Under the pieces are notes generated by a model. It saw only the letters and a list, made by a program, of their open reading frames with translations. It did no database searches and was not told the origin of the DNA. A DNA stretch of 64,000 nt from Mobula hypostoma (Eukaryota), in contig NC_086108.1 of assembly GCF_963921235.1 (NCBI RefSeq), positions 88,600,001-88,664,000 of the forward strand, given 5' to 3'. Position numbers and translations under genes: made by a program. Each line of letters starts with the position of its first letter. Position 1 is the stretch's first letter. This document shows positions 11,640 to 56,270 of the stretch, in pieces.

Positions 11640-14600
11640 ATCAGTCTTATACAATCTTTCCTCATAACTCAGGTCCTCCCATCTCAGCAACATCCTTATA
11701 AATTTTCTCTGCACTCTTCCTACCTTGTTTACTTCTTCCCTGTGGATAGGTGACGAAAACTGCACACAATGCTCCAAATTCGGCCTCAACAACGTCTCAT
11801 ACAACTTCAACGTAACATCCCATCTCCTATACTCAATACTTTGATTTATGAAGGCCAATGTACCAAAAGCTTTCTTTACGACACCATCTACTTTCAATGA
11901 ATTATGTACCTGCGTTCCTAGATCCCTTTGTTCCACAGTATTCCTCAGTGTCCTAACATTCACTGTGTAAGACCTACCCTGGTTGCTCCTACTGAAATGC
12001 AACACCTTGTACTTATCTGCATTAAATTCCATCTGCACTTTTTCCAGCTGATCCAGATCCAGTTGCAAGCTCTGATATTCTTCCACTACACCCCAAATCT
12101 TGGCATCATCCACAAATTTGTCAATCTATTTAACCACATTATCATCCAGATTATTGATTATAGATGACAAACAACATCAGACCCAACACCAATTCCCATG
12201 GAACTCCACTGGTCACAGTGGAGAGGGAACCATCTACTCCCACTCCCTGGCTTCTCCCACAAAGCCAATGTCTAAATCAATTCACTACCTCATCTTGCAT
12301 GCCGAATAACTGAACCTGCTTGACTAACCTTCCATGTGGGATCTTGTCAAATGCCTTACTGAAGTCCATGTAGACAACATCCAATGCCTTGCCTTCATCA
12401 ACTTTCCAGGTAACCTCCTTGACATGACCTACCATGCTCGAAGCCATACCCTAATCAGTCTGTATTTATCCAAATACACAAATATTCTTAAGAGTTCATT
12501 CCAATAACTTTCTCACTGCTGATATCAGGCTCACCAGCCTATAATTTCCTGGTTTATCTTTAGAGCCTTTTTTAAGCAGCAGAACAACATTACTTACTCT
12601 CCAATCCTCTGGTACCTCTTCTGTTGCTAAAGATGATTTAAATATCACTGCTAGAGCCCCTGCAATTTCTGCACTTGCCTCCTGCAGGTTCAAGGGAACA
12701 CCTTGTCAGGCCCTGGCGATTTATCTACCCTAATTTGCCTCCTCCTCTGTAATCTATATAAGGTCCAAGACCTCACCACCACTTTGCCTCACTTCTGTAT
12801 CTGTCTCGCAAGCAAACATAGATGCAAAAAATTGATTTATGATCTCCCTAATCTCTTTTGGCTCCACACATGCATTACCATTCTAATCTTCCAGAGGATC
12901 AATTTTGTTCCTTGTAATCCTTTTGCTCTTAACATGTGTAGAATCCCTTAGGATTCTCCTTCACCTTGGCTGCTCTGGCAATGTCATACCTTCTTTTAGC
13001 CTTCCTGATTGCTTTCTTAAGTATTCTCTTGCATTTCTTATACTCCATAAGTACCTCATTTGGTCCTACTTGCCTATACCTGCCGTGCACCTCTTTCTTT
13101 TCTTAACCGGAACATCAATATCTCTTGAAAACCAACGTTCCCTAAATCTGTTATTTTTACCTTTTAAGCTTTATACTCTCAAAATTTCACCTTTGAAGGC
13201 CTCCCACTTACCAAGTACACCTTTGACAGAGAACAGGCTGTCCCAATTCACACCTGCCAGTTCTTTTTCTGATACCATCAAAACTGGTCTCTTCCTAATT
13301 TTGAATCTTAACCTGCAGACTAGATGTATCTTTTTGCATATTTCCTTTGAAACTAATGGCATTGTAATCACTAAATGCAAAGTGTCTCCCTATGCAAACT
13401 TATGTCACCTGCCCTGTCTCATTCCCTAATAGCAGATCAAGAAGTGCACACTCTTTCACTGGCACTTCTACATAATGATTCAGGGAACTTTGACAAACTC
13501 TGTCTCATCTAGTCCTTTTACAGTATGTCATTATATGGAAAGTCAGAATCACCTACTATAACAACCTGAAGTTTCTTGCAATGGTCTACGATCTCATTAC
13601 AGATTTGCTCCTCTAAATCCCTACGACGGTTGGATGATCTGTAATATAGACCCCTTGACGTGGTCATACCTTTCTTATTTCTCAGTTTCATTCTTAACAC
13701 CTCACTAATCGAGTTCTCTGGTCCGTCCTGATGGAGCACTGCCGCAACATTTTTCCTGACCAGTAATTCCACCCGTCTTCCTTTAATCCCTCCTCTTCTA
13801 TCGACTCCAAAACACTGAACCCTAAAACACTGAACTGTCAGTCTTGCCCCTCCTGCACTCGTCTCACTAATAAGTACAGTATTATAATCCCATGTTGATC
13901 CATGCCCTGAGCCCATCTGCCTTTCCTAAGATATTTCTTGCATTGAAATATACACAGCTCAGGACATTTGCTGCACCATGCTCAATCTTTTGATTCCCAT
14001 CTTTGTCTGAGAGCTCAGCAACATTTGTCTCCACAACCTGTTCTGGCACTCTGGTTCAAATCCCCCTGCAACTCTTGTTTAAACCTACTCCCTCCCTCCC
14101 CCACCCCCACAACCCATGCAGCACTAGCAAACTTTCCCAGTATGATATTAGTCCCCCTCCAGTGCAAGTGCAAACTGTCTCTTCTGTACATCCCACCTTC
14201 CCTGGACAAGAGCACGATGATCCAAAAATTTGATGCCCTCTCTCCTACACCAACTCCTTGGCTATCCCAGATCGAGTCCTCAGCACTCTTAAGTGGGATA
14301 GTGGATAGCCAGAGGTCATGGTCCAAGTAGAAACTGATTATATAGGTAGAAGAGTGACGAGATTCTGCAAAACTATATAAACTTTGCATTTCTGGCCTCA
14401 CTAGCATGTAGCATGGGTAGCAATACTGAGATCATGGCCCTCGAGGTCCTGCCCTTTAACTTAGCACCTAACTTCCTGAACTGACTTTGCAGAGCCTCAT
14501 CACTTTTGCTACCTATGTCATAGACCATGACCTTTTCCACCCTCCCACTTAAGAATGCCGAGGACTCTATCTGAAATACCCCAGACCCCAGCACCTGGCT

Positions 14601-14690
14601 GGCAATATCCAATCCAGGAATCTCGTTCTCATCCATAGAACCTCTTTTCTGTTCCCCCAACAAATCCCTCATCATCCCAGCTTGCCTCTT
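11640..14690 (-). mobile_element. Long decayed CR1 (ORF1 esterase, APE endonuclease, RT)
   Basis: DSLHLHWRGTNI (ORF1); RRGGIKG..YYRS..VGD (endonuclease); PEDWRV..PGNYR..; LEHCVQF. Confidence 0.85.
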
Positions 14691-15625
14691 CTGTGAGCTG
14701 GTGATGGAGGAAAGGAATAATTAGGGTTGAGGGTGGAGGATGGAGTACCAACAAAGCAGGCCACTTTGTTCTGGATAGTGTTGAGCTTCAATCTACTTAA
14801 GAGCTGCAGTGATTTTGGCTTACCAAGAGTATTCCATCACATTTATGGCTCATGCCTCCAAGGTGATGAAAAGGCTTTGGGTGATTTAGAAGGTAAGTCA
14901 TTGTTGCAGGAGACTGCTCTCATATTTATCTGATTAGTCCAGTTGAAATGCTGCTCAATGGAGACTGCTAGGATGTTGATGGCATGTGCTTCAAGATCCC
15001 AGTAATCCTCCAAACATCTCAACATCACGTCATTACACCGGGAAAATAGTCTTGTACTGAGTACATAATCAGTCACACAAGACAAGATAGGGGTGGAAGG
15101 GTGTGGATAAGAGGGAAGGACGATGAAGATGTCTGCATCTTTATGGCACATCAATGATGCAGATGGTTTGCTCGTTCTGCTCCATTTGATCACGATGTCT
15201 CACATGATGATGCTCATCGCAGCTGCTATGTGAGGTGTTACAAAGTGAGTGAAAAAAAAACAATATGGTAATAATATCTCTTCCACAAACCTCTCTAATC
15301 TCACTTTCTGTCTTTGCTTGTTTTACTGATTATAAGCCAAGTCCATTTTGTCTTCTTAAATTGATTTAAACTTCAAAGCTTGATTCATGACCCTCTCTAA
15401 TCTCCCTCGGAAACCTGGTATCAAATTTAACATCTTAATCTCTATTTAGGCAATATTCTCCATTGTGAGATGCTAACAAATTCTTGAGTGATGCATTACT
15501 AAATCCAGCAGAGCTGGTACAGATCTAGGTTATTTTTATGTGCAGACTTTTGACATGAAGTATATTTGCATAGCAGTGTTACCTTTACATGTTGATGTAT
15601 TTTTTGCTCTGTTAACAATACTCAC

Positions 15626-15759
15626 CTAGACATTCGGTCCCAAGTTATATCCATGATAACTGAGTAAGCTCCTATGAGGATTGCATCAAAGTAGCATGGA
15701 ATAAGGTAACGGGGAAGGACTTTGAGGTAAGAAAACATTGCTTCAAACCATTTACCAAC
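15626..15759 (-). CDS. AGL: AGL exon (functional copy)
   Basis: AG..GT, 134 nt; VGKWFEAMFSYLKVLPRYLIPCYFDAILIGAYSVIMDITWDRMS. Confidence 0.96.
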
Positions 15760-15854
15760 CTGGTAGAAAAGAGAACATTGAGATAATAGATTTCCAGCAA
15801 GTACAGTTAGAAGTTAACCAATTTGCGGGGTTTCAAATTAGATATTAATATCAT

Positions 15855-16160
15855 TCATAAGGAATAGGAGCAGAATTAGGCCATTTGTCCCATCGAACCT
15901 GCTATGACATTCCATCATGGCTGATATATTATCCTGCTCAACCTCATTCTCTTGCCTTCTCCCCGTATCTTTTGATGCCCTTGAACCTCCACTTGAAAAA
16001 CACCCAATCACCTGCCCTCCATAGCCATCTATAAATAAATTCCACGGATTCAGCACCCTCAGGCTAAATCAATTCCTTCTCATCCCTGTTCTAAAGGGAC
16101 AACTTTCCAATCTGAGGCTGCGTCTCAATTCTCTTGATGGGATGAATGACCCAGTTCCAC
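15855..16160 (-). mobile_element. CR1 3' end
   Basis: Reverse complement of the same 3' UTR as 4780-4926. Confidence 0.7.
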
Positions 16161-17349
16161 TCTCATGTCTTATGGACTTAAATCCTGCATCAGGACCCTG
16201 CAGCAGAGGGATGTAATATATCCCACTATCAGATTGTTAACACATTCTGATCTGTTGTGCATTATTAAATCCAGTACAGTTATTTCAGACAATTACCTAG
16301 GTTAGTTTTACATGCACTCTTGACATAAAGCACTGGAATACCCCTGTACCAGCATTATCCTTATCCACTGACATATTGTTTCTTCTACAGCATTGTAGGA
16401 AATAGTGAAATGGCTTTGTAACACTGCAGTAAAGAACAGGAGAATGTCACGCTGCAGAGAGATATATGGATACTCTAGAGCAGCCTTTCTCTGGAGGAAC
16501 CCTTGAAATAATTTTCAGGTCTCAGGGAACCCCTGCGTAAAAAAAATGTTATATCTTCAGCTCGCAGTATGATCACAGTGTGATCAGTACGTTGTATATA
16601 TAACAATGAAAAAATAATTGACAATGCTCTTTTGAGTAGGGAATGAATTTTTAGTCAACCTTTCTTGAAAAAAATAGGTAGCTAAGCTTAGCTTACTTTT
16701 CTTGAAATTAATCTTTCTTTCCCTTTCATAAATTTTAAAAACTCATAAGACAAATATAACAAGCACACATGGATTTCGCCTGCAATTGAAGTGAGACAAT
16801 TTCTATCTTTGCTCGATGCTTGTTAAACAAGAAAAAGCTTGCTCACACATATAGGAAATTGAAAATTGCAGTATAGTGTTTGTTGCTTTCGTATGAATGG
16901 CAGAATACTCCTCTTTCATAGAAATCTAGAACATGGCCAGGGGCAGGTCAGTAAATCTCATCTTGAGTGCACAATTAGAATGCACCTCACAAAGTTCTTC
17001 CTCTTCTTTCTAATTCAAGTTCTCAGGCTGAGCAGAAGATTCAGGGATAGGGTCCCTCACCCAGTCATACACTTGCATTGACAGGAAGGAAAAATATTGT
17101 TCAATTTTGTTCTGCAGTTCTTCTAGGTGGTTTTCAATATGACTCGAGACTTTCTGATATCCTTACTTACTCTCAAGCCCAACCAGCAGATTTCCTTTTG
17201 CAACATGATTTTTCCCAAAGATTCAGTTTCCTTTTAAATCCAAGAATCTTGTCACTTGAGTCAAAACATTTTCTCTAGGGTCTTGCAGAAACTTGTTCAA
17301 CTGGTTCATATGATGAAAAATGTGTTAAGTAGACAATTCTTCATCTTCA

Positions 17350-17484
<135 letters not shown>

Positions 17485-17746
17485 TTATTTTAAATCATTC
17501 TCCAGTGATCTGGTCTTTCTTTAATAAAGTTAACTACTTTTGAGGCATCATCTAGGACTTTTCTCATTACAGCTCCAAGAGTTTTTGACATCAGCACCTC
17601 TCTGTGAAGAAAGCAGTGTGTTGTGACAATGTCGGATTTTCTCCTTTTTTTAAAACATGAGAAATGAAACCTCATGGAACCAACCACTGATGGGAGACCA
17701 TCAGTACAGAGGCCAACACAGTTCCTTCAAGACAGACTTTTTGTTT

Positions 17747-19361
17747 TGTAATGGGATCCTGGATTACCTCTATTAACTGTGCTTTCGAAAAGACAGAGAG
17801 CGTTATTTAACACCGACAACTTGTTTGTAAGAGAGAGAGATGGAGAGATAGAGAGAGAGACAGACAGACACACACACGCATGGATGAAGATTAACTGTTG
17901 GCCTGTCACTTTAAGAACTGGTTAACTTTTGGATTTCTGCTGAGTTGGAGAGAGATGGCACCGAGCAGCTCAAAAGTTGCTATGGTGACGGAAGACAGGT
18001 TGTTGATACTTCAAGGACTTTTTGCCTGTTTGTGCATTTCTTCACAGAGAGGAAGGAGGGATTATTTGAATGACAGTTGATGCTCAGCATGGGAAGATAA
18101 AATAGGAGGTCAGATGGTAGACCTCAGACACATGTTCTGGACATTGAATGAGCATTGTTGTGCCCACAGAAAAAGGGGGTTTTGGAGGATCGATCAGGCG
18201 GATCGATCCATCGCTCTTGCAGTGGAAAGAGGAAAAGGTTTGACTGGTGGCGAGTTGTCCATGTGTCCACCCTTGCCTGGGGGATAGCTCCACCACAGAA
18301 AACCGGTCCTCTTTGTTAAAGTCACAGTTGGTGACTCTTAAAAGATTTCGAAGGACAACAGAAAGATCGACGGCGTCAGCTCACCTGAAGACTCAAATTT
18401 CTCCCTCTCTCTCTCTATCACTACTCAACTCAATACCACAAACCGAACTGAACTTTACTCATCATTGTAAGACTGTATCTTTTTACCCCTAGGCTTAAAG
18501 AAGCTTGGTTTTTCATACATATATTTCCACACTTACTGATATATATAATCATTGCTAACCTGTTTGATTTATCTACATTTATATTACTGTATTGGGTTGT
18601 TACTAATAAATATTATTAGTTTATAGCAATACTGGACTCCAAAGTGTTTTCCTTTTTCTTTTTAAATCTTTTTATTGAGTAAGTATACAAAAAAGGTAAG
18701 CCATATAAACATTAATACAATGTTAAAGTATAATAAAATTCCAAAAGATAACAATACCAAAAAGAAAATACTACAAACAATGTAATTTAAGCATAAGAAA
18801 CCAAGATAACATAATAGTATACTAGATTTTATATATATCAATGGAAAAAAAGAAAAAAAAAACCCCAAAAAAAAACCCACCGTGCAACTAACTAAAAGCA
18901 AAGCAAAGCAATGGGCTAACTTGAAACCAAACAGAGTTAAACTTAAAATCACGTCCTCAATCCCGACCTCCATTAAAACAGTGAAGAGAAAACAAGAAGG
19001 GTAAATATTACATTAAATGAAAATATCGAATAAAAGGTCCCCAAATCTGTTCAAATTTAAATGAAGAATCATAAAGGTTACTTCTAATTTTCTCCAGATT
19101 CAAACATAAAATCGTCTGAGAAAACCAAAAAAAGGTAGTTGGAGCATTAAGCTCTTTCCAATGTTGTAAAATACATCTTTTCGCCATTAAAGTAAGAAAT
19201 GCAATCATTCTACGGGCTGAAGGGGAAAGATTACTAGAAATTTTAGGTAGTCCAAAGATAGCAGTAATAGGGTGAGGAGAGATATCTATATTTAATACCT
19301 TAGAAATATAAAGTGTTTTCCATCTCTGCTGGTTCTTTATTCTGGTCCCGGGTCCCTCACA
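17747..19361 (+). repeat. 5' LTR (interrupted by an L1 fragment)
   Basis: Starts TGTAATGGGATCC, ends CTCACA; colinear with 23456-24545. Confidence 0.9.
18653..19309 (-). mobile_element. 5'-truncated L1 LINE inserted in the 5' LTR
   Basis: 12-bp TSD AAAGTGTTTTCC (18641-18652, 19310-19321); minus-strand AATAAA and A-rich tail; ORF2 C-terminus AKRCILQHWK..LEKIR..KFEQIWGPF. Confidence 0.88.
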
Positions 19362-19365
19362 AAAT

Positions 19366-19384
19366 TGGGGCCTGCGTCCGCGAT
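19366..19384 (+). promoter_or_regulatory. Primer binding site, tRNA-Pro-like
   Basis: TGGGGCCTGCGTCCGCGAT just after the 5' LTR, versus canonical Pro PBS TGGGGGCTCGTCCGGGAT. Confidence 0.7.
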
Positions 19385-22300
19385 ATGAACAAATTGGTCA
19401 GGAGGCTGCTTTGAATTGATTGGGGAAAATCCATTTTGATTTGGTTATGTGGAAATACAGCAAAAATGGATGTTAGTGTTGAGGAGTTTATGTTGGAACC
19501 AACCCCGGAAGAGTTGGATGATGTTACGAGGGCTGTGCTGTTGGGAATTGCTCAGAAGTTAAAACTAAAGGTGACCACAAGAATGAGGAGAGCTCAAGTG
19601 CACACGATAATAGCCCAGCATTATATAGATAAGGGAACGTTTGATGAGGAGGTGTTGAAAAGGTTCGTGGAAGGTAAACTTATTGAGAATGAGCTTCAGC
19701 TTCAGTTGGAAAAATTAAGAATGGAGTATGAATTGAAATTAAAACAGTTCAAGAGAGAGGCTAGAGAGGCAGCAAAACAGAGAGCAGAGGCAGCAGAACG
19801 GAGCGACGAGGCAGCAAAACAGAGACAAGTGGCAGCAAGACAGAGACAATAGGCAGAAAAATGGAAAGAAGAGGCAGAAAAACGGAGAGTTTGAAAGGGA
19901 GAAATGGCAACGTGAAGATCACGTGGCAGACTAGCAGAGGCTGTTCAAGCTGGAAAAGATAGAGATGTAGCAGCAAAGAGGTTTAGTGTCAGACCCTGGT
20001 GATTTTTGCAGCTTAGAAGGGCTTGTTTTGTGTGGTGAATTTAAAAGGTGTGTTCCTGATGAGGTAAGGGCATACCCAGATGCAGAGGATGCCGCTACCC
20101 TGAAGGGGTTTGATAAGAAAGCAGACGAAGAAGTTTTAACCCACGGGGTTGAGTTTACTCCAGATGAGAGTTTGCCAGAGAAAAGCTGGGAGGTTTGGGG
20201 TGACCTTGAATTTGAAATTGGGACAAAGGATGACAACCCAGAAGAGGCAGCTGTTCCGACTGAATGTGTTCAGGTTATGGAAGTACCTGTGAATTCACAG
20301 AGTTCTGAACCTTATGTTAAAGCTCAGTTAAAGTCTGAAGTGTCTGACTTGGTTGAAAAGGAATGCAGTCTTTGTGTGTCAGATGATCTTGGTTCAGTGA
20401 ATAAGGGGTTAACTTTGGTACTAGTGGAATGTGAGGATTCTCAGTCACTTGTATTAAGTAGTGTTTTAAAGGTTGGTGAAGAAGTGGAAATTGATGAGGT
20501 CAGTGTTGCTGAAAATAATGGGAAAAGTGCTGTTCCTGGACTTTTGGATAAAGTGCTGGGAAAGGTTGGATTGGTTGTGCAACCTTTGACCCTGCTTGCA
20601 GACAGAGGCCTGCTGAGAAGGGATGTGCTCGTCTGTGGAATTTTGTTTGGACATTTGGAAGTAAGCACCTGCAAGGTCATGCTGTTATTCAGTGTAATGT
20701 TCTGCAGGTAAGTCAGAGAAAGTTGATAAAGAGATTGTTTGGCCTCTTTCATAATGCATACATGATTCTCATCAGCCTGCTGATGGTACTGAGTTTTGTA
20801 AACAATGGGGGTATGTTGACACCTCTCCAAGATAAGAGTGTTTCAGCAATTCAGCTGATGAACAAAGCTGCTGTTGAGGCCTACAATAGCAAAACCAGAG
20901 GTTTAAATTATGATGTGTCACAGACTTTTCTACCTTCTAAATTTCAGCAGGACTTAGAGGGTAGTAAAGCTGAGAGGAAGAAGGAGGAAAGGAAAGGTTT
21001 GTCTTTATTGAGGAAGGAATTTATAGAGGAACAGAAGTGAGATTCTGAAATGTTGGCTTTAAAGGAGATGGCTCTCACAGGAGAAGAGGTTCAGAGAGAG
21101 TCAGCGGGATATTACCTTAAAGATGGGTGCTGATGAGGAAGTGGAGATCAGCTACAGTGCCTGCAAGTCACGTGATGGTTCTGAAAGTTTACAGGGCTGA
21201 AATTTTAAACATGGCTTACAGTATGCCTTTAGGTAGACCTCATGGAGTGAGAAAGACAGTGAACAGGATTAAGAAGAAATTTTACTGGCCTAGTTTAAGG
21301 AGGGACGTTGTGAATTTTTACAGGATCTGCCATACCTGTCAAGTTGAGGGGATATTTAATCAGGTTATTCAAGTCACCCTGCTTAAACAGATACCTGCTT
21401 TTGGTAAATCTTTCCCTAGGGTCATAGTGGATTGCGTAGGCCCACTGCAAAAGACTGCAGTTGGTTATCAGTATGTGCTGTGTCTAGGTCCCCTGAAGCA
21501 GTGTCTTTTGAAAACACCGAGGCCAAGACTGTCGTAACAGCATTCAGTAAGTTTTACACACTGGTAGGTCTACCCAAAGAAATTCAATTTGACCAGGGCA
21601 GTAACTTTACTTCGGGAACATTCTAGAGGGTAGTTAGAGAATTAGTAGCTAAGCACATGGTGTCATCTACATATCACACAGAGTCCAAGGGAGGCTTGGA
21701 ATGGTTCAACTCAACTCTTAAGACCATGATTAAAGCACATTGTGTGAGAAATGGAAAAAATTGGGATGAGGGGGTTCCCCTCCTCTTATTTATTGTTGGA
21801 GATTCGATTCAGAAGGCAGTGAAGGGTAGTTTGTTGGAAACTGTATTCAGCTACAGGCCAAAAGGATCTTTGACCCTACTGAGAATTCTGGAAGGGATTT
21901 AGTAAGCTTTGTGTCCTTGCAAAGGAAAGCTTACAAGATGGTCGAATCAAACTAAGACACTTGTTTGCTAGAATAGCAGCTGGGAGAATTGTTATGGAAC
22001 AAAATGGAGTCGTGGAATCTGATAATGAAGTGGAAAAACATGTTTACCCATTAAATCCAGACTCACCCAGATGTCAGAATTCCATTGTTTTGGAAAATAT
22101 TACTGATAAAGTCTATCAGTTGGACCCAAAATCGCAAAAACAAGTTAAAGGACTAATTGGCATTTTGAATTGGCAGTGCATCACGTCATTATAGATTCAG
22201 CCCAGCCTATGAAACGGCATCTTCACAGAGTCAATTTTGAGGAAAGTAAAAGGGTTGAAGAAGGAATTAGAAACAAGAAAGAACAAGGAAGGAGAATGGA

Positions 22301-23443
22301 TGATTGTATTGGTAGAGTGGGGAAAGCTAAAAACCTTATTAAGATTAACTTGTTAAAAGAATACTGGGGTGTTCCTTTAACAGAGAGGACTAAGGAGATA
22401 TCAGCATTTGGGATACCGTCTCGACTGTATGAATACAATGTTTTACACTTCGGGATGAAAAATGCACCAGGGACATTTCAAAGAATGATCAATTCTGTGA
22501 CTGGAGGGTTAGAAAGCACAGGGGTTTATATCAATGATTTAGTGATCTGGAATGACACGTGGGAAGAGCTTATTGCAGCGGTAGAAAAACTGTTTCACAG
22601 ACTTTCCAAGGCCAATCTTACTGTGAACCTCGCTAAAAGTGAGTTTGGCCATGCCACAGTTACATATCTGGGTTATGTGGTAGGCCAGGGCCAAATGACT
22701 CTTGTACAGGCCAAGGTTCAAGCTATTGCTGAAGTTCCTGTTTTGATGGGCAAGGAAGCTTCAAGAAGGTTTTTGGGAATGGTTAGGTATTACTATAAGT
22801 TATGTAAGAACTTTGCTGACATCGCTCTCCCCGTAACAAAACTCCCGGGGAAGAGTGAAAGATTTGTATGGAGTGACCTTTGCCAGGAGGCATTTGAATG
22901 CCTGAAAACCATCCTATGTTATCATCCTGTGCTCAAAGCACCTGATTTTTCAAAACCATTCTCAATAGCAACAGACGCTAGTGACGAAGCTGCTGGGGCA
23001 GTACTGTTACAGAAGGGTGTGGATGCCATTGAACACCCAGTGGCTTATTTCTCAAAGAAATTTAATGTGCACCAGAAAAATTATTCAACTGTTGAAAAGG
23101 AGTTGTAGCACCTATTCTGGCCTTACAACATTTTGAGGTTTATATTTGTCCTGCTCAAAGACCCCTTGTGATTTACGCAGATCATAACTGTTGGTGTTTT
23201 TAACTAAAATGAAGGTAAAGAATAGAAGGTTGTTAAATTGGAGTCTGATATTGCAAGAATGTGACTTAACAATCAAACATGTGAAAGGTACTGACAATAT
23301 TATAGCTGATTGCTTATCCACATGTTAAGTTGGAAACTGTATACATTTTCACTGTCATCTGATGATTTTTACCTGTATTGTTTCAAACTCTGTTATTTAC
23401 ATTTAGACAAAAAAAAAATCGGCTTTGTCAATTTTTTTTCTCT

Positions 23444-23455
23444 GAGGAAGGGGAG
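23444..23455 (+). promoter_or_regulatory. Polypurine tract
   Basis: GAGGAAGGGGAG immediately before the 3' LTR. Confidence 0.85.
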
Positions 23456-24545
<1,090 letters not shown>

Positions 24546-25885
24546 ATTTCCAGTTATGAAAACAAAACATTAAATATACCTTGGCCTTTGCTCGTTTCAG
24601 GCAGCTCTTTGCAGAAGAAAAAACCTTTCTTGAATTTCACCATCATTTACAAATCTTACAATATGACATTTATTGGTGAGATCTGTTGACTCATCAACCT
24701 GGATAGAGACACTATTATTTTTCAGTTTATCACACAAAACCTTTTCAGCATCATGCGATAGATAGGTCATCAAGATGTTGACTTTATGTACTATTTGAGA
24801 GTGAAACCTTTTCCAATTTCTCGGTACTGCATCTTGTCCTAGCATTTTATCCACTATAATTTTACATACTGGCATTATTAGGTTCTCACCAACTTGTGAC
24901 TTTTCCAAGTAATAAGTTCTGCTGAGTCACGGCACATAGAAATTCTTTAGAATGAAAATTTCCCTCCCATTTTCTACTACACCGGTAGAGTTTGTTCATT
25001 CCCATAAGTCAGTCAGCAGTGCTCAAGGGGAAGTTGCAGATAGTAACTCAGGAGGGAGAGGCTGACGTTACAGCCCAAGTTGGGCGAGTCCATTGAATGC
25101 CTGGAAAATGACTTCATGCTCCTCACTAGCCTACTGTCCTCCCATCCGTGCAATACAGCGCTCAACGATTATCAACGACCTCCCCTATCTCACGCCAAAA
25201 ACTGAGAATGGACTCAACCAAACACACATGGTCGTACTGTACACTCCCATATTGATCTGAGAGACCCCCAACGAGATGGTGAATGGGACTGCTCAGTCAC
25301 TGCCCAGCACTGTGAGCACTGGCATCACACAAAGTTCAAAAAAGGTGTTTATTTTTTTTTAAAGTACAATCTCTCGCAGAACTTTTAGCGACCTCTCGCT
25401 AGTAACCCCAGTTGAGAAATGATGCTCTAGAGGGTTGGTACCTGCCGTAGAAAATCTGGAACTGGTTCAAGTAAACCCAAACTGCAGCTAAAGTGAACCA
25501 TCATAAACTCATAGCTGTTTACCAGCCTAATAACAATCCCATAAACTCCAGCATGGAATTTTCCCATTGTACATACAAAGTAAAGATAGAACTGCACATA
25601 GCTAATGTAGCATACAAGGCTCTCTTAATATATAGGCACTGAAGTCTCTGCAAAAGGCTGACTTCATTCTACATATACACAGCATATGCAGGATAGAGAC
25701 AATGGGACTGTGGAGGGAATGCTGATACAAAATAGTATAAGAATAATGGAATCTTTGGATCGGGGTGTTTTCATTCCTGGACAAGTGACTCACCGTTGAT
25801 GTCAGTATGTAATAAAGAGGAAGCCCTGAAGGAAAAGGATTCCGTGTGAATTCCACCCATCTACAATTGTTAGCACAATACTCAC

Positions 25886-26010
25886 CCTGACATTCAGCTC
25901 CCGGGTTATGTCCAGTAAGCGCCCATGAGGATTGCATCACAGTACAATGGAATAATGTAACTGGGAGGGTCTTTCAGGTATGATAACATTGCTTCAAACT
26001 ATTTACCAAC
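25886..26010 (-). pseudogene. AGL: Degenerate duplicate of the AGL exon at 15626-15759
   Basis: Aligns end to end with that exon; TGG>TAG at codon 4, 10-nt deletion, 1-nt insertion; same donor GTGAGTATTG; native acceptor absent. Confidence 0.92.
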
Positions 26011-26200
26011 TACTGTACCAGACTCCAGGAGAGCTTCTATTCCACTGTTATAAGATTATTGCCCTGACCGCTACACAATAAGATGGACTCTTGACCTCAC
26101 AGTCTACCTTATCATGGCCTTGCACCCTATCATCTGCCTGCACTACACTTTCACTATAGCACTAAATTCTGCATTGTTACTATTTTCTCTTGTACTTGTC
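26011..26200 (+). mobile_element. Rex1-like 3' fragment abutting the pseudo-exon
   Basis: ACCAGACTCCAGGAGAGCTTCTATTCCACTGTTATAAGA resembles 50508-50550. Confidence 0.55.
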
Positions 26201-26789
26201 AATGAACTAATTAGAATTGAAAATACACGTGGACTAAGATGTTAACTGTCCTGTGCTATCACCAGTGGGTTCATCAGTTGATCTGTCACCTGTCTTCAGG
26301 AGTTTCGGCCCACTTATGATCAAGACTCCCTCAAGGTGGTGGGCCAGCAGTGCTAAAGCACCACCTCCCAGTGGTGAGATTAAAACTTGGCATCTGCCTC
26401 TATTAGAGTTGTTCGTCACTTCCATCCAACACATAGTCTGCTCCTCAGGTGTCTGTGCAACTACTGATGGGTTTGCAAAAGGTGTATACACTGTCTGATT
26501 ATCTGCCCCTCCAACTATATGGATGGCATGCAAAACAAAGGTTTTTACTGGACCCAAGTACATGTGACAATAATAAACCAATTTAACGATTTCATTTACT
26601 AATTTAATGCAGGGGATTAAAGTACATCATTCAATAAACCATCATCTGTTTAAAACAAAAAAGGACTACTTTTTACTGAAACTATAATTTTTTGACAACA
26701 TTTGGAATTCCATTTGTTCAAAGAAAAAAATAATGCAATTGCAAGATATTGCACAGTTAATTAAATATTTTTAAAATGAACTATTATCA

Positions 26790-27110
26790 TGGTAGGAAAC
26801 AAGGCATTAAACTTACAGAAAATTGTGGTTCTGCAAACAGTAAGTTATGCTAAAAATAATCTTATATTGTGATTTTGTTTGAAGGATAAATATTGACAAG
26901 GGTGTGGAGTAGAATGCAATGCTTTTCAAAATAGGGAAACAGGATTTTGTTTTTAACACTTAATTGAAAGAACAAATGTGGCCTCAGTTTAATGCTTCCT
27001 CTTAAAGATGCTACAACCCAACGTTGAAGAACTTCCATGGTACTGCACTGGAATGTGAGTTTAGGTTATAAACTTGTCTCCAAAATAGGGTTCACCATGG
27101 TCTAATTCAG
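26790..27110 (-). mobile_element. Ancient Deu-domain SINE (AmnSINE1/SacSINE1-like)
   Basis: Minus strand CCAGTGCAGTAC...TTAAACTGAGGCC...CAATATTTATCCTTCAA matches the recalled Deu-SINE core. Confidence 0.6.
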
Positions 27111-27149
27111 ATGACAATGTCTTCAGTTTAAAACTCAGATTGTATTTTT

Positions 27150-28915
27150 AGACCATAAGACATAGGAGCAGAAGAGTAAGCCAGTCAGCCCATCGAGTCT
27201 GCTCCGCCATTCAATCATGGGCTGATCCAATTCATCCAGTCATCCCCACTCCCCTGCCTTCTCCCCATACCTTTTGATGCCCTGGCTAATCAGGAACCTA
27301 TCTCTGCCTTAAATTCTCCCAATGACTTGGTCTCCACAGCCGCTCATGGCAACAAATTCCACAGATTTACTACCCTATTACTGAAGTAATTTCTCCGCAT
27401 CTCTGTTCTAAATGGATGTCCTTCAATGCTGAAGTCGTGCCCTCTTGTCATAGACACCCCTATCATGGGAAATAACTTCGTCATATCTAATCTGTTCAGG
27501 CCTTTTAACATTCGGAATGTTTTTATGAGATCCCCCCCCATTCTCCTAAAATCCAGGGAATACAGCCCAAGAGCTATCAGACATTCATCATACGGTAACC
27601 CTTTCATTCCTGGAATCATTCTCGTGAATCTTCTCTGAACCCTCTCCAATCTCAGTATATCCTTTTTAAAATAAGGAGCCCAAAACTGCAGACAATACTC
27701 CATGTGTGATCCCATGAGTGCCTTTTCGAGCCTCAACATCACATCCCTGCTCTGATATTCTACACCTCTAGAAATGAATGCCAACATTGCATTCGCCTTC
27801 TTCACCACTGACTCAACCTGGAGGTTAACCTTTAGGGTATCCTACACAAGGACTTCCAAGTCCCTTTGCATTTCTGCATTTTGAATTCTCTCCCTATCTA
27901 AATAATAGTCTGCCCGTTTATTTCTTCCACCAAAGTGCATGACCATATGCTTTTCAACACTGTATTGCATTTGCCACTTATTTGTCCATTCCCTAAGCTA
28001 TCCAAGTCTCTCTGCAGGCTCTCTGTTTCCTCAACACTACCTGCTCCTCCACCTATCTTTGTATCATCTGCAAACTTAGCCACAAATCTATTAATCCCAT
28101 AGTCCAACATTGACATAGATCATAAAAAGCAGCAGTCCCAACTCCGACCCCTGTGGAACTCCATTGGTAACCGGCAGCCAGCCAGAAAAGGTTCCCTTTA
28201 TTCCCACTCTCTGTTTTCTGCCGATCAGTCAATGCTCCACCCATGCTAGTAACTCCCCTCTAATTCCTTGGGCTGTTATCCCGCTAAGCAGCCTCATGTG
28301 CGGCACTTTGTCAAAGGCCTTCTGTGCAGTAGGTTTTCACATCTACTGCGTCTCCTTTGTCTACCCCACTTGTAATTTCCTCAAAGAATTGCAATAGGTT
28401 AGTTAGGCAGGATTTTCCTTTCAGGAAACCATACTGACTTCGGCCTATCATGCCAGGTGCCTCCAGGTACACCATAATCTCATCCCTAACAATCAATTCC
28501 AACAATTTCCTAACCACTGATGTCAGGCTAACAGGTCTATAGTTCCCTTTCTGCTGCTTCCCATCCTTCTTAAACAGCGGAGTAACATTTGCAGTTTTCC
28601 AGTCATCCGGTACAATGCCAGAATCTATCAATTCTTGAAAGATCAATGTTGATCAATCTCTCCAGCTACTTCCTTCAGAATCCGAGGGTGCATTCCATCA
28701 GGTCCAGGAGATTTATCCACCCTTCTCAGTTGTAATTTTCACTGCACGTACTTCATTTCCCTGACACTCTTGAATGTCCAGTATACTGCACATGTCTTCC
28801 ACTATTTCTCTGCCACCTCTGCGTATCTCATTACAATATCTCCAGCATCATTTTCTATTGGTCCTATATCTACCCTCAACTCTCCTTTATCCTTTCTATA
28901 CGTAAAAATGCTTTT
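27150..28915 (-). mobile_element. CR1 LINE, 5'-truncated
   Basis: PDDWK..GNYRPVSLTS, SCLTNLL, KFADDTK, ERVQRRFTRMIPG; 3' tail at 27150. Confidence 0.92.
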
Positions 28916-28918
28916 AGT

Positions 28919-28952
28919 GGGGGGGGGGGGAGAGAGAGGCAGAGACGGAGTA

Positions 28953-28992
<40 letters not shown>

Positions 28993-29000
28993 AGAGAGAG
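28919..29000 (+). repeat. Poly-G plus (GAGAGT)n microsatellite
   Basis: Directly visible. Confidence 0.95.
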
Positions 29001-29156
29001 AAAAAATTCAGGTGGAAAAGTGTAATTAAAAGATCAGCCATGATCTTACTGAGAGTTAGAGAAGGTACTAAGGTGAAAATTGCCTTCACTTGCTTCTATA
29101 TACAAGTTATATGCATGTGACCACATAAACAAACACACAAACCAACATCAGCTCAC

Positions 29157-29293
29157 CACTGCAAGACTGCCGCCATGTGTGATCAAACGACTACTTATGA
29201 AGTCCATCATCCAGTCTCCAGCCCGCAGGTTTTCACACAAAGGATGCCCTAGGTCATTGTTGGGTCGAATATCTGCGAGTACTGACATGAATC
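29157..29293 (-). CDS. AGL: AGL exon
   Basis: AG..GT, 137 nt; [45 protein letters not shown]. Confidence 0.96.
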
Positions 29294-30689
29294 CTAGTAA
29301 AGCACAGTAGTTCAATTACATTTACTGAGGGAAACCATTTGTATTAGAAATCCTATTATATACTAATTGTCCACTATATTTCAGTCAAAAAATACGATAT
29401 TTAAATTCAGAGCAAACAAAAAAAGTTGTGAAGGAATTCAGCAGGTCCAGCAGCATGTGCCAAGGCAGAGTGATGGTCACCATCTTTGGATCCTGCAGGG
29501 ATCCTGATTTAGGGTCCCCGTCCGAAACACCATCTACCTCAACAGATGTTGCATGACCCACCAAGTCCCCCAGCAGTTTGCATTATGCTCAAAATTACAG
29601 CATATGCTATCTCATCTCTCCATTTAACATCTGAATATTAATTTACCATAAATCTGTTTTAGATTATATCTCTCAGGAGATTGAGCATTCATTTACACAA
29701 GATTAAACTGACCCTCAAGAGGTTATTTATGTTGAATACAAGGTGTGATTAAATGGCACTGGTTTGATTTGTGAAGAATCAAGTCATTTCACCTGCGCCA
29801 TCCAGTGTGTCCAATAGGTATTACACCTGTTCAATTACCTATTCAGTACCATTTAACGCCTTGATCCTTTCTGTAAAAAGTAGTGATTATGTATCCTTAA
29901 ACATCTCACCAAATAATTAACCAGCACAGTGAATACTTCATGGGCTAATCAGTGGTGAAATGCCATCCAGATATGCACTTTCAAAATTGGTTCCTGAATA
30001 GAAACACTGGACAACAATTTTTTTTTTTGGAAAGTGCTGCTTCCTCAGATTTTTTTTTTGTTTATGATAGACTGCTTGAAGCTGAACACAAATAATAATT
30101 TCAGTCTACTTATAACATGTAGGAATTTGGAGAAACAATAAATTAACTTTTACTGAACATAATACATTTAATTGCCTAATGATGCTCCTGTTTTGTAATA
30201 ATTCAACTAAGTTAAAAATGTTTGGTTGATGATTTTTATTTGTACTCAGTGCTTGAGGCTTCTGGTTTCAATGTCCAACAATAATCAGACAGCATTAATG
30301 GATTCCAGTTGCCCTGATACGGTTTCTCCAGGACAGCAGTGTCCTGGTGAAATCTTTCACCATGCTCATTACAGACAACATCAAGATTTGCAGGGAAGTC
30401 TTCTAAATGGGAAGTCAGAAATTGAATCTTTAGTGACATGTTGCACTTCATGGCATGTTGTCAACCAGCTGCATGTAGTTTGATGCTCTGTAGTTGCCAA
30501 GAAAATTTTCAACAACATCCTTGAATGCCTTCTATGCATTTTCCCTGGTCCCACTAGAAGTTCTTCATCCTTCAATGCCTTCTACATATTTTCTCTGGTC
30601 CCACTAGAAGTTTTTCAAATTGCCTGTCACTGATGACGCGTTTGATTTGTGAACCAACAAAAATGCCTTCTTTAATCTTGGCATCAGTT

Positions 30690-44479: not shown

Positions 44480-46335
44480 GTGTACATACATCTATTGATG
44501 CTTCTGGACACATCTTCAGTGATGTTCCTGGAATCATCGGGTGTTTCGGGTCTTTCAACATCATACAACCTCCTCCAGGTGACCCAGTCGGGGCAAATCA
44601 GACCCCAGCTTGTGTCCAGATGGCTAGCTACTTATGACTCCATGGCTCCCCTCTTTTGAGCCACAGCCATCTTGAGGCCCTCTCTGCCACATCGGTGGTA
44701 CTGTGGATGGCTCTCCTCTTCTTCTCTCCCTCGATGCCCAAAATGCTGAAGGCTCTAACTAAAGAATGGGCTACGAATCCCCTACAACCAACCTCCACTG
44801 GGAGACACCTCGCTCTCCATCCAGCCTGCTGACAGTTGCTGACCAGTCCTGTCTACTTGGAGAGCTTCCTTTCAAAGGCCTCCTCCAAGCTATCTTCCCA
44901 TGGGACTGCCAGCTCCAGTAGCACCACTTGCTTAGTCGATTCAGACACTAAGACCATGTCTGGTCGCAGGGTGGTGGCTGCGATATGGTTGGGGAACTTC
45001 AGCTGCCCTTCGAGGTCCACCAACAGCTGCCAGTCCCTTGCAGAGGTCAGAATGCCTGCAGATGTTCTTTTGGCAGGTATTGGCTGCTCCCCAGCTCTGA
45101 CAAAGGTAATGGTCTGCTTGGAGGCTTGGGACCACTTCACCCACTCAACTCCTGTGCTGACGGCTTCAGCGATGGTCTTCAGGACCTGATCATGCCTCCA
45201 CCTGTACCATCCCTCACCAAGTGCCCTTGCACAGCCGCTGAGGATGTGCTCCAGGGTTCCTCGCTTGGAGCACAGTGGGCATGCAGATGACTGCCTTACC
45301 CCATGTGTGCAGGTTTGATGGGCTTGGAAGCACATCGTACACTGCCTGGATGAGAAATTGGATGCGGTGTGGTTCGGCTTTCCAAAGATCAGCCCAGGTC
45401 ACTTTCCTCCCAACCGCATTCTCCCATCTTGTCCAAGCTCCCTGTTGCTTCATTCCCACCACCTTGCAGGCTCTCATCTCCTCCACTACTGCTCTCACCT
45501 CCTCCTGAACTAGATGATGCCTTTCCTTCCCTCTGGTGTCCATTTGGGGAGTTGGAAAGGATCCTAGCCCAGCTCGGCCTTGTGTGACCACTCCCACCAG
45601 CCTCCTGTGACGCAACCTCGCCTCTGCCTCCTGAACAGCTTCCTCTGTCCTCCACTTCCTGCCAGTACTTACTTGGATCCCTGCTCTAGCCACCTTTGGG
45701 CAACTTGAGTCCCTATACTGCAGCACTTCTCTGGCTCTTGTTACCTTGAATTCTTCCTCCAAGGATTTGAAGGGCAGTTGCAGTTTGTTGAGGTGTCCAT
45801 AGAGTGCGATGCTGCTCAGGCTCTTTGGCAGCCCCAGCCATCTCCTGAGGTGGTTGCTAACCCTCCTCTCTAAGGTTTTGACTGTTGAGATCGGAACCGC
45901 ATAGATGAGGAGGGGCCACAGGATTCTGGGAAGAATGCGATGCTGATACAGCCAGGCTTTAAACTTCCCAGGTAGGCCAGACTTGTCCACAGATTTCAGC
46001 CAGCCATCCAACTTGGTGCAGGTTGCCTGAATGGATGTTGTGTCCCTTAAAGAGCTGTCAAAAACTTTGCCTAAGCTCTTGACTGGCTTTTCTGTGATGG
46101 TTGGGATGGCTGTGCCTGCGATGCTGAACCAGAATTTGTTCTCCACCTTCCCTTTCCTCAGCACCATTGATCTTGATTTGGTGGGTTTGAAACGTATCCG
46201 GGCCCACTCCACCAGCTTTTCGAGCCCTTGCAGAATCCTCTGGCAGCCTGGGACTGATTCTGTGGTGACTGTGAGGTCATCCATGAATGCCCTGATAGGT
46301 GGTTGCCATTGAGCGGAATTCATTCTGGGCCCTCT
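44480..46335 (-). mobile_element. Non-LTR retrotransposon with C-terminal restriction-like endonuclease (Hero-like, R2 group), 5'-truncated
   Basis: RT motif AFMDD in ORF 45214-46323; CCHC knuckle CPLCSKRGTLEHILSGC; RPD..ELAVPWE; C-terminus AERASRWLWLKR with stop at 44628-44630; short 3' UTR. Confidence 0.85.
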
Positions 46336-47221
46336 AGACCTCCATCAGAATGAAAGGTCATCCTGATGAAACATGAACCGTTTATTCTCCTCCATAGGTG
46401 CTGCCTGACTGGCTGAGTTCCTCCAGCATTTTGTAGGTGTTGCCCCAAGATTTCCAGTATCTGCAGAATCTCTCCAGTTCTGTGGGTTTTGAGGTGACTA
46501 TTGAGGGCAATGTGGCAACTGCAGACTCTGCCTTAGGTGAAGCAGAATTTGCCCGTTGACGCAGCTTAATGGGTAGGATATCAGGCAATGTGCTGCTTAT
46601 GCTATTTTCACAGTGCTCTCATATGTCCAAATCAAGGTGCAATCCAAACTGCTTTTGTCCATCTATCATCTTCCTCAAATACAATTATGTAATCATATTC
46701 ATCAAAGGTTAAGGGGAGAAGGCCGGGAACTGGGGTTGAGGAGGAGAAATAAAAAGGATCAGCCATGATTGAATGGCGGAGCAGACTTGATGGGCCAGAT
46801 GGCCTAATTCTGCTCTGATGTCTTATGGTCCTGTTCCTCCTTTCTTCCTACACTTCCACCCAAACCATTTTGTTATCTATTCTATATATCACCCCTTACC
46901 CCACTTTGGTTTGACTATACTCCTACACTCTGATTAGGATCACCCACTTGTTCTCGACCCTATGTGCAAAATGTCATGAACACATGAGACTCTGCATATG
47001 CTGGGAATCTTGACTAACACACACAAAATACTAGATGCTGTCCGACTTGTTGAGCTCCTCCAGCATTTTGCGTGCAGCACGTCATAACTGATCGCATACA
47101 AAAACCAATATGTTGATATGCAGCTTAATCCAAACATTAAACAAAATATTCAGAAATAGTTAACAGGTGGTTGTGTATAGTAGTACTATTATTCTTACCC
47201 ACCTTGGTTAATTTTTAATTT

Positions 47222-48111: not shown

Positions 48112-48235
48112 CTCGTATTAAAGAGCTTATGCCCAATCTGGTCACAAAGACATTATCCATCTCTTCACTTCCAGTGAACAATTCTGCCACGACATACAAA
48201 TTAGGTCTCAGTCTTCTAGCAGTGTCCAGCATGTA
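48112..48235 (-). CDS. AGL: AGL exon carrying the acid/base motif
   Basis: AG..GT, 124 nt; [41 protein letters not shown]. Confidence 0.98.
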
Positions 48236-49434
48236 CTGCAATAAAATAAACAAGAACCAAGAAAGAGAGATAAAATAGGAAAGTAGACAAAAAATATCTA
48301 CTGGGCAAAAAGCGAGATCAAAATGAAGTAATGCAAGGAAACAAAATACTTAGCAAAATAGAAAATAAGTGATTTTTTTTGCCAAGTTAGTGAGTTGTTG
48401 GAAGAAAAATACAAAATAAAAATCAATGTATTAGGTTTAGCAGATTCAATTAATAAACATGATTAAATAATTCCCACCATATGAAAGTAGAATTTGCATG
48501 TCAGAAAATTGATGGAAAAAGAATTCCAGTATGTATTCTTTAAAAGGTATTCAATACTTCCTTAACTCACATTTACGTACAAAGAAACAATAAATCCCAG
48601 ATAATTGGCAAGGATTATATCTCTGTTTCTGTAGAGTATGTGTTTGTCCAAGTAATTAAGTCAATATTTCTGGCAGATAGTAACTTATTTGCAAAAACAT
48701 ATTTTTAAATATATTCTAAAATTAAAGCATGGTGTCATTGGCCAGGATATAAGAAAATGTAAAAGCCTGCATAACTGTAGACTGGTAGCTTTAAAAAAGT
48801 AATGTCACATAATTCATTGCAGTAAAGAATTTCAGTTTAGCCTTTTAATTCGTTATTTAAAGTACTCTTAACATTTAAAAAAAATGCAACAAATTCAATT
48901 CTCTAAAAAGCAATAAATTTGATTAAAATGAAGGCTCAAACCAGGCTGACTTCATTATATTAACTGTCAAGTTGAAAAGAATTGGTTAATAAGCTTCAGA
49001 ACTTCATTTACATGGATAGTAATTAATACACATATTTTTGTTTCCATTTTACCCTCCTTTCCTTCACAAAAACAGCACTTTAAAATGGAATTAAACCGTG
49101 ATTTGAACCTACTGTCCCTTTAAAAGAGATATTCAAAAAAAGTCCCAATTTGCTACATACATAAAACTAAACATAAACTTCAATTAATATTTATAGCAAT
49201 TTTCTATTCCCTGTACTTATCAACTAAATGTTTGTACAACGTAATATGGCAATGCAAATTGGAGCACAACTGTAGCTCTGGTAGAACAATGTTAAAGACT
49301 GTCATTTTACCTGCAAAATAATTCATAAATAGAATATTAATTTCTTTTGAATGAGACACAGATATAAACATTGGATTAATTGAGTAGCACTAGTCAGTTA
49401 GCCAAGGATTCATTACAATTCCTGAAATGGAAAT

Positions 49435-56029: not shown

Positions 56030-56158
56030 CTCAAAAAGAATGAGAGATTTAAAAATTGTTAGCTATGCAAACTACCATGTTTAACAGTAAATTCTGTAAA
56101 AACGGGGAAAAAATATCTCAAACTGTTTTTGTACATGCTAATTGGTCCTCCGCTGTAC

Positions 56159-56270
56159 CGTGCACGAGTGCATTGCGGAAGTCAGCAACAACTTTTTTAA
56201 CATTCACTTGAAAGAATTCCCATAACCGTAGTTTAGGATAGATTTCTTCCCACATGATTTGACGAACACA
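56159..56270 (-). CDS. AGL: AGL exon
   Basis: AG..GT, 112 nt; [37 protein letters not shown] (hand translated, not in ORF track). Confidence 0.95.

Follow-up and report, generated by a model that had tools for sequence, protein, structure and literature searches.

A dead copy of an AGL exon at the truncated 5' end of a Rex1-like LINE in the ray Mobula hypostoma

An intron of the glycogen debranching enzyme gene (AGL) in the ray Mobula hypostoma holds a second version of the exon that follows it, which raises the question of whether a working splice switch was lost here or whether the second version never served as an exon. The window, by which we mean the whole 64,000-nt stretch analysed (NCBI RefSeq assembly GCF_963921235.1, contig NC_086108.1, forward-strand positions 88,600,001 to 88,664,000), contains most of AGL on its minus strand. 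A ray AGL protein maps onto it in some twenty exons between 61446 and 5194, and the best fitting of six ray AGL proteins was that of M. hypostoma (1081 identities in 1227 aligned residues), in which the peptide of exon 15626-15759 is identical; this exon corresponds to residues 984-1027 of human AGL (PDB 8zeq). The second version lies in the intron between the upstream exon at 29157-29293 and this working exon, and the parts concerned are, by position in the window:

15626-15759, minus strand: working AGL exon and source of the copy, 134 nt, residues 989-1033 of ray AGL, acceptor and donor intact
25868-25885, minus strand: copied donor and first 16-18 intron bases, where homology ends (0 of 300 shuffles reach its score)
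25886-26010, minus strand: dead copy (125 nt) of the exon at 15626-15759, from self-BLASTN and alignment
26011-26016, minus strand: 6-nt spacer at the expected acceptor position, matching the upstream exon end at 4/6 letters and the real acceptor at 0/6; five of its six letters are absent in related organisms C and E
29157-29293, minus strand: upstream AGL exon; by sequence comparison, its final bases are similar to the spacer

The segment is a dead duplicate of an AGL exon. Self-BLASTN aligned it with exon 15626-15759 at 79% over 153 columns (E 1e-30), which bears out the earlier note's description of a 125-nt copy in the same intron and orientation about 10 kb upstream; the gap between the two is 10.1 kb, and 19 substitutions in 124 aligned bases leave them 85% identical. 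Alignment also confirmed that the splice donor (GTGAGTATTG) is retained and that the copy is broken, by an in-frame stop at codon 4 (26000), a 10-nt deletion and a 1-nt insertion. Two homologous exons are thus present in tandem between common flanking exons, and the duplicated unit consists of the exon and about 18 intron bases, about 150 nt in total. We detected no homology to the working exon's downstream flank past +18, and the copy has no acceptor in the window: the working acceptor scored 23 against the sequence past the LINE tail, a value equalled by 120 of 300 shuffles, and in a power check homologues simulated at 25% divergence had a median score of 94. In a comparison of 21 AGL exon regions with 25430-27140, meant to reveal further exon pieces around the copy, three exceeded the best of 20 shuffles by a few points and two equalled it, and we judged all of these to be chance. 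An Rfam search of 14000-30000 gave no match. Just downstream of the copy, a 32-nt stretch (25794-25825, minus strand) is bounded by a good-looking acceptor and donor; we rejected it as a conserved cryptic exon, since the donor GT is altered in organisms C and E (at 25793), and it is likely a chance occurrence.

Contigs from 4 of 24 listed runs, representing related organisms B, C, D and E, were compared with the window over 25430-27140, and those of three of the four span the copy. One contig of organism B does so with 7 differences in 622 nt, and contigs of C and E cover 25544-26210 with 54 and 51 differences; that of D, at low depth, holds the LINE and the right flank and ends 34 unaligned letters past 26016, leaving the copy uncovered. 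Among the differences listed, no insertion or deletion falls inside the copy in B, C or E, so both of its indels are common to them. No difference was listed at 26000 either, and the stop is likely common to B, C and E as well, to judge from how comparable neighbouring positions were listed. The suggestion that relatives might keep an intact second copy therefore found no support, as none of the three organisms that span it has an open copy among the differences listed. The copies of C and E differ from that of the window at seven positions, at five of which they carry the working exon's letter, so these changes, among them the GAT/GAC difference listed in the earlier note, are later events of the dead branch. 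All seven would fit changes in the lineage of the window (7 to 0, p 0.016 under equal rates), through faster change or by chance.

The copy keeps ray-type codons (Ser10, plus Val14 in C and E) and is thus likely younger than the split between sharks and rays. It likely arose within rays, and the contig comparison would place its origin long before C and E diverged: nonsynonymous change of about 9% in the copy predates that divergence, against a total intron divergence of 6-8% since then.

Organism B carries an identical base change in the copy (at 26004) and at the matching base of the working exon, which is absent from the contigs of C, D and E and corresponds to a Lys to Glu replacement also present in the AGL protein of Mobula birostris. 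This double change may represent a short gene conversion between dead copy and working exon, though a single shared change could also be a parallel mutation, for which we roughly approximate the chance at one given site as 0.3-0.5%. With the stop four bases from 26004 seemingly kept, a conversion tract would be about 10 nt or less. In glycophorin B, a pseudoexon reportedly may exchange letters with a working paralogous exon; the partners there belong to separate, highly similar genes, whereas the case of organism B involves a single shared change and a copy that is 85% identical.

The earlier note had observed that about half of the substitutions fall at third codon positions and saw in the copy a possible relic of a mutually exclusive exon pair. 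The count is correct (9/19), yet only 6/19 leave the amino acid unchanged, and with so few changes the share at third positions does not significantly exceed one third (p 0.15). With 13 nonsynonymous and 6 synonymous changes over 98.3 and 25.7 sites, respectively, dN/dS between the copies is 0.52, as expected for a dead copy compared with a constrained exon, and the proposed test for a synonymous excess thus spoke against the relic. The nonsynonymous distance of the copy amounts to 13-15%. In such a comparison synonymous differences accumulate on two branches and nonsynonymous ones on one, so the synonymous share expected for a copy dead from birth is 0.34, against 0.32 observed (6 changes, 6.5 expected). 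Across all 19 changes an omega of 0.1 was rejected (p 0.0003) and 0.2 narrowly so (p 0.04), and neither 0.3 (p 0.25) nor 1 was rejected. The 14 changes common to organisms C and E (9 nonsynonymous, 5 synonymous) give a dN/dS of 0.47 and reject an omega of 0.1 (p 0.005) and not 0.2 (p 0.18). Since 0.3 for all changes and 0.2 for the common ones were not rejected, a brief functional spell is compatible with these counts.

The copy has 11 altered residues, of which two are stops, and not one of the 11 occurs among the 109 distinct animal exon peptides that we obtained from 217 AGL proteins. Six of the 11 lie at positions at least 95% invariant, a count that is partly built in, because five of these positions are fixed or nearly so by our anchor pattern, whose parts W and P-R/S-Y-L are present in 210 of the 217 proteins. 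Purifying selection left no sign on the copy: dN/dS is about 0.5 for the changes that preceded the divergence from C and E and for those that followed it. The copy probably decayed without selection and likely never served as an exon.

No swap of exon 15626-15759 occurs in the 30 proteins that cover it from 22 cartilaginous fish species (31 proteins were examined, one too short), in annotation that can miss rare isoforms, and one chimaera AGL model deviates only in the last few residues of the exon peptide. Eight full-length skate transcript assemblies likewise contain no swap.

What lies on the other side of the copy is part of a LINE that was later split, and the intron has received further insertions. 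These are:

16481-25424, no strand assigned: later transposon block with nested elements, about 8.9 kb between two copies of an 8-bp repeat
26017-26210, plus strand, antisense to AGL: first piece of a 5'-truncated Rex1-like LINE, with the last 15 reverse transcriptase (RT) codons, then 3' UTR
26211-26518, no strand assigned: younger high-copy insert splitting the LINE, absent in organisms D and E, whose contigs join across
26519-26600, plus strand: LINE 3' end and degraded short tail; in other copies of the element, about 26055-26186 is joined directly to about 26518-26560

The earlier note placed a Rex1-like fragment right at the 5' edge of the exon. A LINE fragment does adjoin the copy there; it starts at 26017, six bases off, and this start is the element's own truncated 5' end. 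The translation of 26017-26061 yields 15 residues that resemble the C-terminal ends of RTs from fishes and rays at 53-67% identity, a weak match (E 0.03-0.3), and the matched proteins carry RVT_1 and ALKBH8_N domains, with no match labelled Rex1. Thousands of contigs match the 3' region of the element, which is therefore high-copy, and this region ends variably, with loose ends at 26583-26592. By its likeness, the LINE at 26017-26600 is a putative member of the Rex1 family. Rex1 elements are described, in the excerpted text of the source, as having a conserved 3' UTR followed by an oligonucleotide tail and frequent 5' truncation (PMC6274825), and the high-copy 3' region, the short tail and the truncation at 26017 fit that description. 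Copy and LINE end lie within 6 nt of each other in the window and within 1 nt in C and E, where their join has a 2-3 nt overlap. We found no target-site duplication around copy and LINE among repeats of at least 8 nt, at a site that is old, and when LINE family sequence upstream of the junction was sought, one 22-nt stretch had 0 matches in metagenome and viral contigs. The younger insert at 26211-26518 contains a 33-nt imperfect palindrome (26334-26366), and its summed contig depth is far higher in B than in C, D and E.

The block at 16481-25424 makes up most of the gap between copy and exon. The 8-bp repeats that bound it have the appearance of a target-site duplication left by a later transposon, by its likeness a putative hAT element; a Pfam search of the block returned no family support, for hAT or any other. 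Between transposase-like fragments at 24600-24926 and 17493-17726 sits a nested element about 6.8 kb long. Its direct repeats, at 17747-18652 and 23456-24535, measure about 900 bp and are 90% identical, and it also contains LINE-like pieces. Once later elements are subtracted, about 0.9-1.2 kb of older unique DNA separates the copy from the working exon. In another AGL intron stretch (44631-46344, minus strand), a 376-codon open frame and further frames resemble a non-LTR retrotransposon of another clade.

The joining of a truncated LINE end to non-LINE sequence, with an identifiable template nearby, leads us to favour, with some confidence, an origin in which the copy was captured as filler in one step when the Rex1-like LINE inserted about 1 kb from the working exon. 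The LINE would have been reverse-transcribed into the AGL intron antisense to the gene and would have stopped early, after which the other broken chromosome end would have primed on nearby AGL sequence. Copying would then have begun a short way into the downstream intron and run back across the exon for about 150 nt, and the product would have been attached to the LINE end. The copy would have been without an acceptor from the start, and later insertions would have widened its distance from the exon to 10 kb. That LINE and copy arrived in one event, and the order of these steps, we infer from the adjacency of the two, no empty site having been seen.

The main alternative to capture is an ordinary small DNA duplication that took its splice sites along and was dead at once or nearly so, with the LINE landing later at the acceptor, which was lost then or through a microhomology deletion. 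The shared orientation and intron and the kept donor agree with such an event, intronic exon duplicates are common in vertebrate genes according to the part of the Exonize survey available to us (PMC12343006), and the 2-3 nt overlap at the join in C and E fits a deletion as well as a capture. It requires, however, that LINE or deletion end at the exon's first base and that both flanks vanish, given that there is no acceptor-side homology and none past +18, where a simulated homologue would show; it also leaves the likeness of the spacer to the upstream exon unexplained. We regard this duplication as possible, though on balance unlikely. That the whole similarity is an assembly artefact or due to chance can be set aside almost entirely, in view of its E value and because the contigs of three other organisms carry the copy with its flank.

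The reading in which the copy once formed a working mutually exclusive pair with exon 15626-15759 and was killed by the LINE in this lineage is largely refuted, and we consider it very improbable. It would accord with the intact donor and the nine third-position changes, with the apparent swapped-exon pair at another AGL exon in bony vertebrates (below), and with mild constraint (omega 0.2-0.3) not being rejected on so few sites. Against it stand the dN/dS of about 0.5 on either side of the C/E split and the altered residues at invariant positions, an argument weakened by the anchor; no repair of the stop or indels in B, C or E appears among the differences listed; no swap is present in the 30 cartilaginous-fish proteins or the 8 skate assemblies; and the ray-type codons suggest that the copy postdates the shark-ray split. 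The synonymous share described above, too, is that of a dead copy.

Capture at the LINE end leaves two templates to consider. The earlier note took the retained donor as an argument for duplication at the DNA level; the donor is indeed kept, and the argument is too strong, since partly spliced nascent RNA also keeps the downstream donor, while in this copy no intron sequence precedes the exon and the six bases at the junction are similar to the end of the upstream exon. The two mismatches between the spacer (26011-26016) and that exon end are transitions. Of all 6-mers in the window, 3.6% reach this level of match, and 0.5% reach it with mismatches that are all transitions. We detected no longer match of the copy's flank to the upstream exon beyond these six bases. 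One deletion in C/E and one transition in the lineage of the window would explain both states of the spacer, and under this parsimony guess the ancestral match would have been 5/6. Some of the spacer may belong to the LINE itself, as a few other contigs of the element extend to 26014.

We tentatively propose that the template was nascent RNA of AGL itself, from which the upstream intron had been removed and the downstream intron had not, and we lean only slightly to this over nearby DNA, each taking about half of our confidence in one-step capture; the preference rests on six letters. The LINE RT, primed from the second chromosome end on the host's half-spliced transcript, would have written the exon back just upstream of itself. 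A nascent transcript would be held at the site and would leave a copy with its donor kept and its acceptor missing. An RNA template antisense to the LINE would need second-strand priming on a different RNA, and the passages available from the cited sources offer no precedent for priming on host RNA.

Captures of this general kind have been described. About half of zebrafish ZfL2-2 elements have 5' extra nucleotides, many of them templated from flanking sequence (PMC4245944, PMC4760211, as excerpted), and the AGL copy resembles these in being non-LINE sequence, templated nearby, at the 5' junction of a truncated fish LINE. It differs in length and distance, with about 150 nt comprising a whole exon and donor from about 1 kb away, against the 'several' nucleotides from flanking DNA that the excerpts mention; in addition, the element here is Rex1-like rather than L2, and its template may be RNA. 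Among L1 insertions, the accessible part of one report lists 4-312 bp of captured non-L1 sequence, including 266-bp genomic and 18-bp mRNA pieces at 5' ends (PMC1920257). These non-classical insertions likewise join non-L1 sequence to L1 ends, but the pieces described there came from other loci, whereas the present one derives from the very gene into which the LINE inserted and lies antisense to the element. Like the degenerate intronic exon duplicates found by Exonize (PMC12343006), the copy is an exon match in an intron of its own gene; compared with what the excerpt of that survey describes, it lacks any copied acceptor-side flank and is fused to a LINE end.

While surveying AGL proteins, we observed same-length isoform pairs that differ only in residues 538-579 in bichir, gar, bowfin, coelacanth, axolotl and two frogs. 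Entries from lungfish, alligator, tortoise, rattlesnake and wallaby have the second form as well, two lizard models carry it directly alongside the first in tandem, and its sequence is nearly unchanged across these groups. We found it neither in the 31 cartilaginous-fish proteins nor in the fetched placental mammal and bird entries (mostly cluster representatives), and the window sequence holds a single copy of the exon:

48113-48237, minus strand: single copy of the exon for AGL residues 538-579

For bony vertebrates, from bichir to frogs, reptiles and wallaby, these protein models point to a conserved pair of swapped exons at residues 538-579 of AGL. A search of the literature, mostly outside subscription journals and without the supplementary tables of exon-duplication surveys, found no papers on a mutually exclusive exon in AGL. 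E555, F557 and E579 of human AGL are sugar-binding residues according to the excerpt of a recent report (PMC12219210). The 538-579 exon includes E555 and F557 and ends beside E579. We presume E555 to be a catalytic residue. This pair and the dead copy have in common two homologous exon sequences in tandem in one gene; the 538-579 forms are, in contrast, open, of equal length, conserved across species and seen as isoforms, and the dead copy is none of these. In a further region of the gene, AGL of myliobatiform rays has 8 extra residues (about 321-328) that are missing from one Mobula birostris isoform; in the window (about 56150-56175, minus strand) they continue the exon frame, which suggests an alternative donor.

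Being dead, the exon copy in this intron is a genomic scar of little functional weight and should not be listed as a lost splice switch. The case also teaches that a third-position excess can mimic past selection and yet be what is expected of a dead copy compared with a constrained exon. If the RNA route is true, tandem exon copies can arise in cis through RNA, without unequal crossing over, and their signature would be an intronic exon copy on a LINE 5' end that keeps its donor and begins with a few bases of the previous exon. The swapped exon at AGL residues 538-579 lines the sugar-binding pocket and could matter more than the dead copy.
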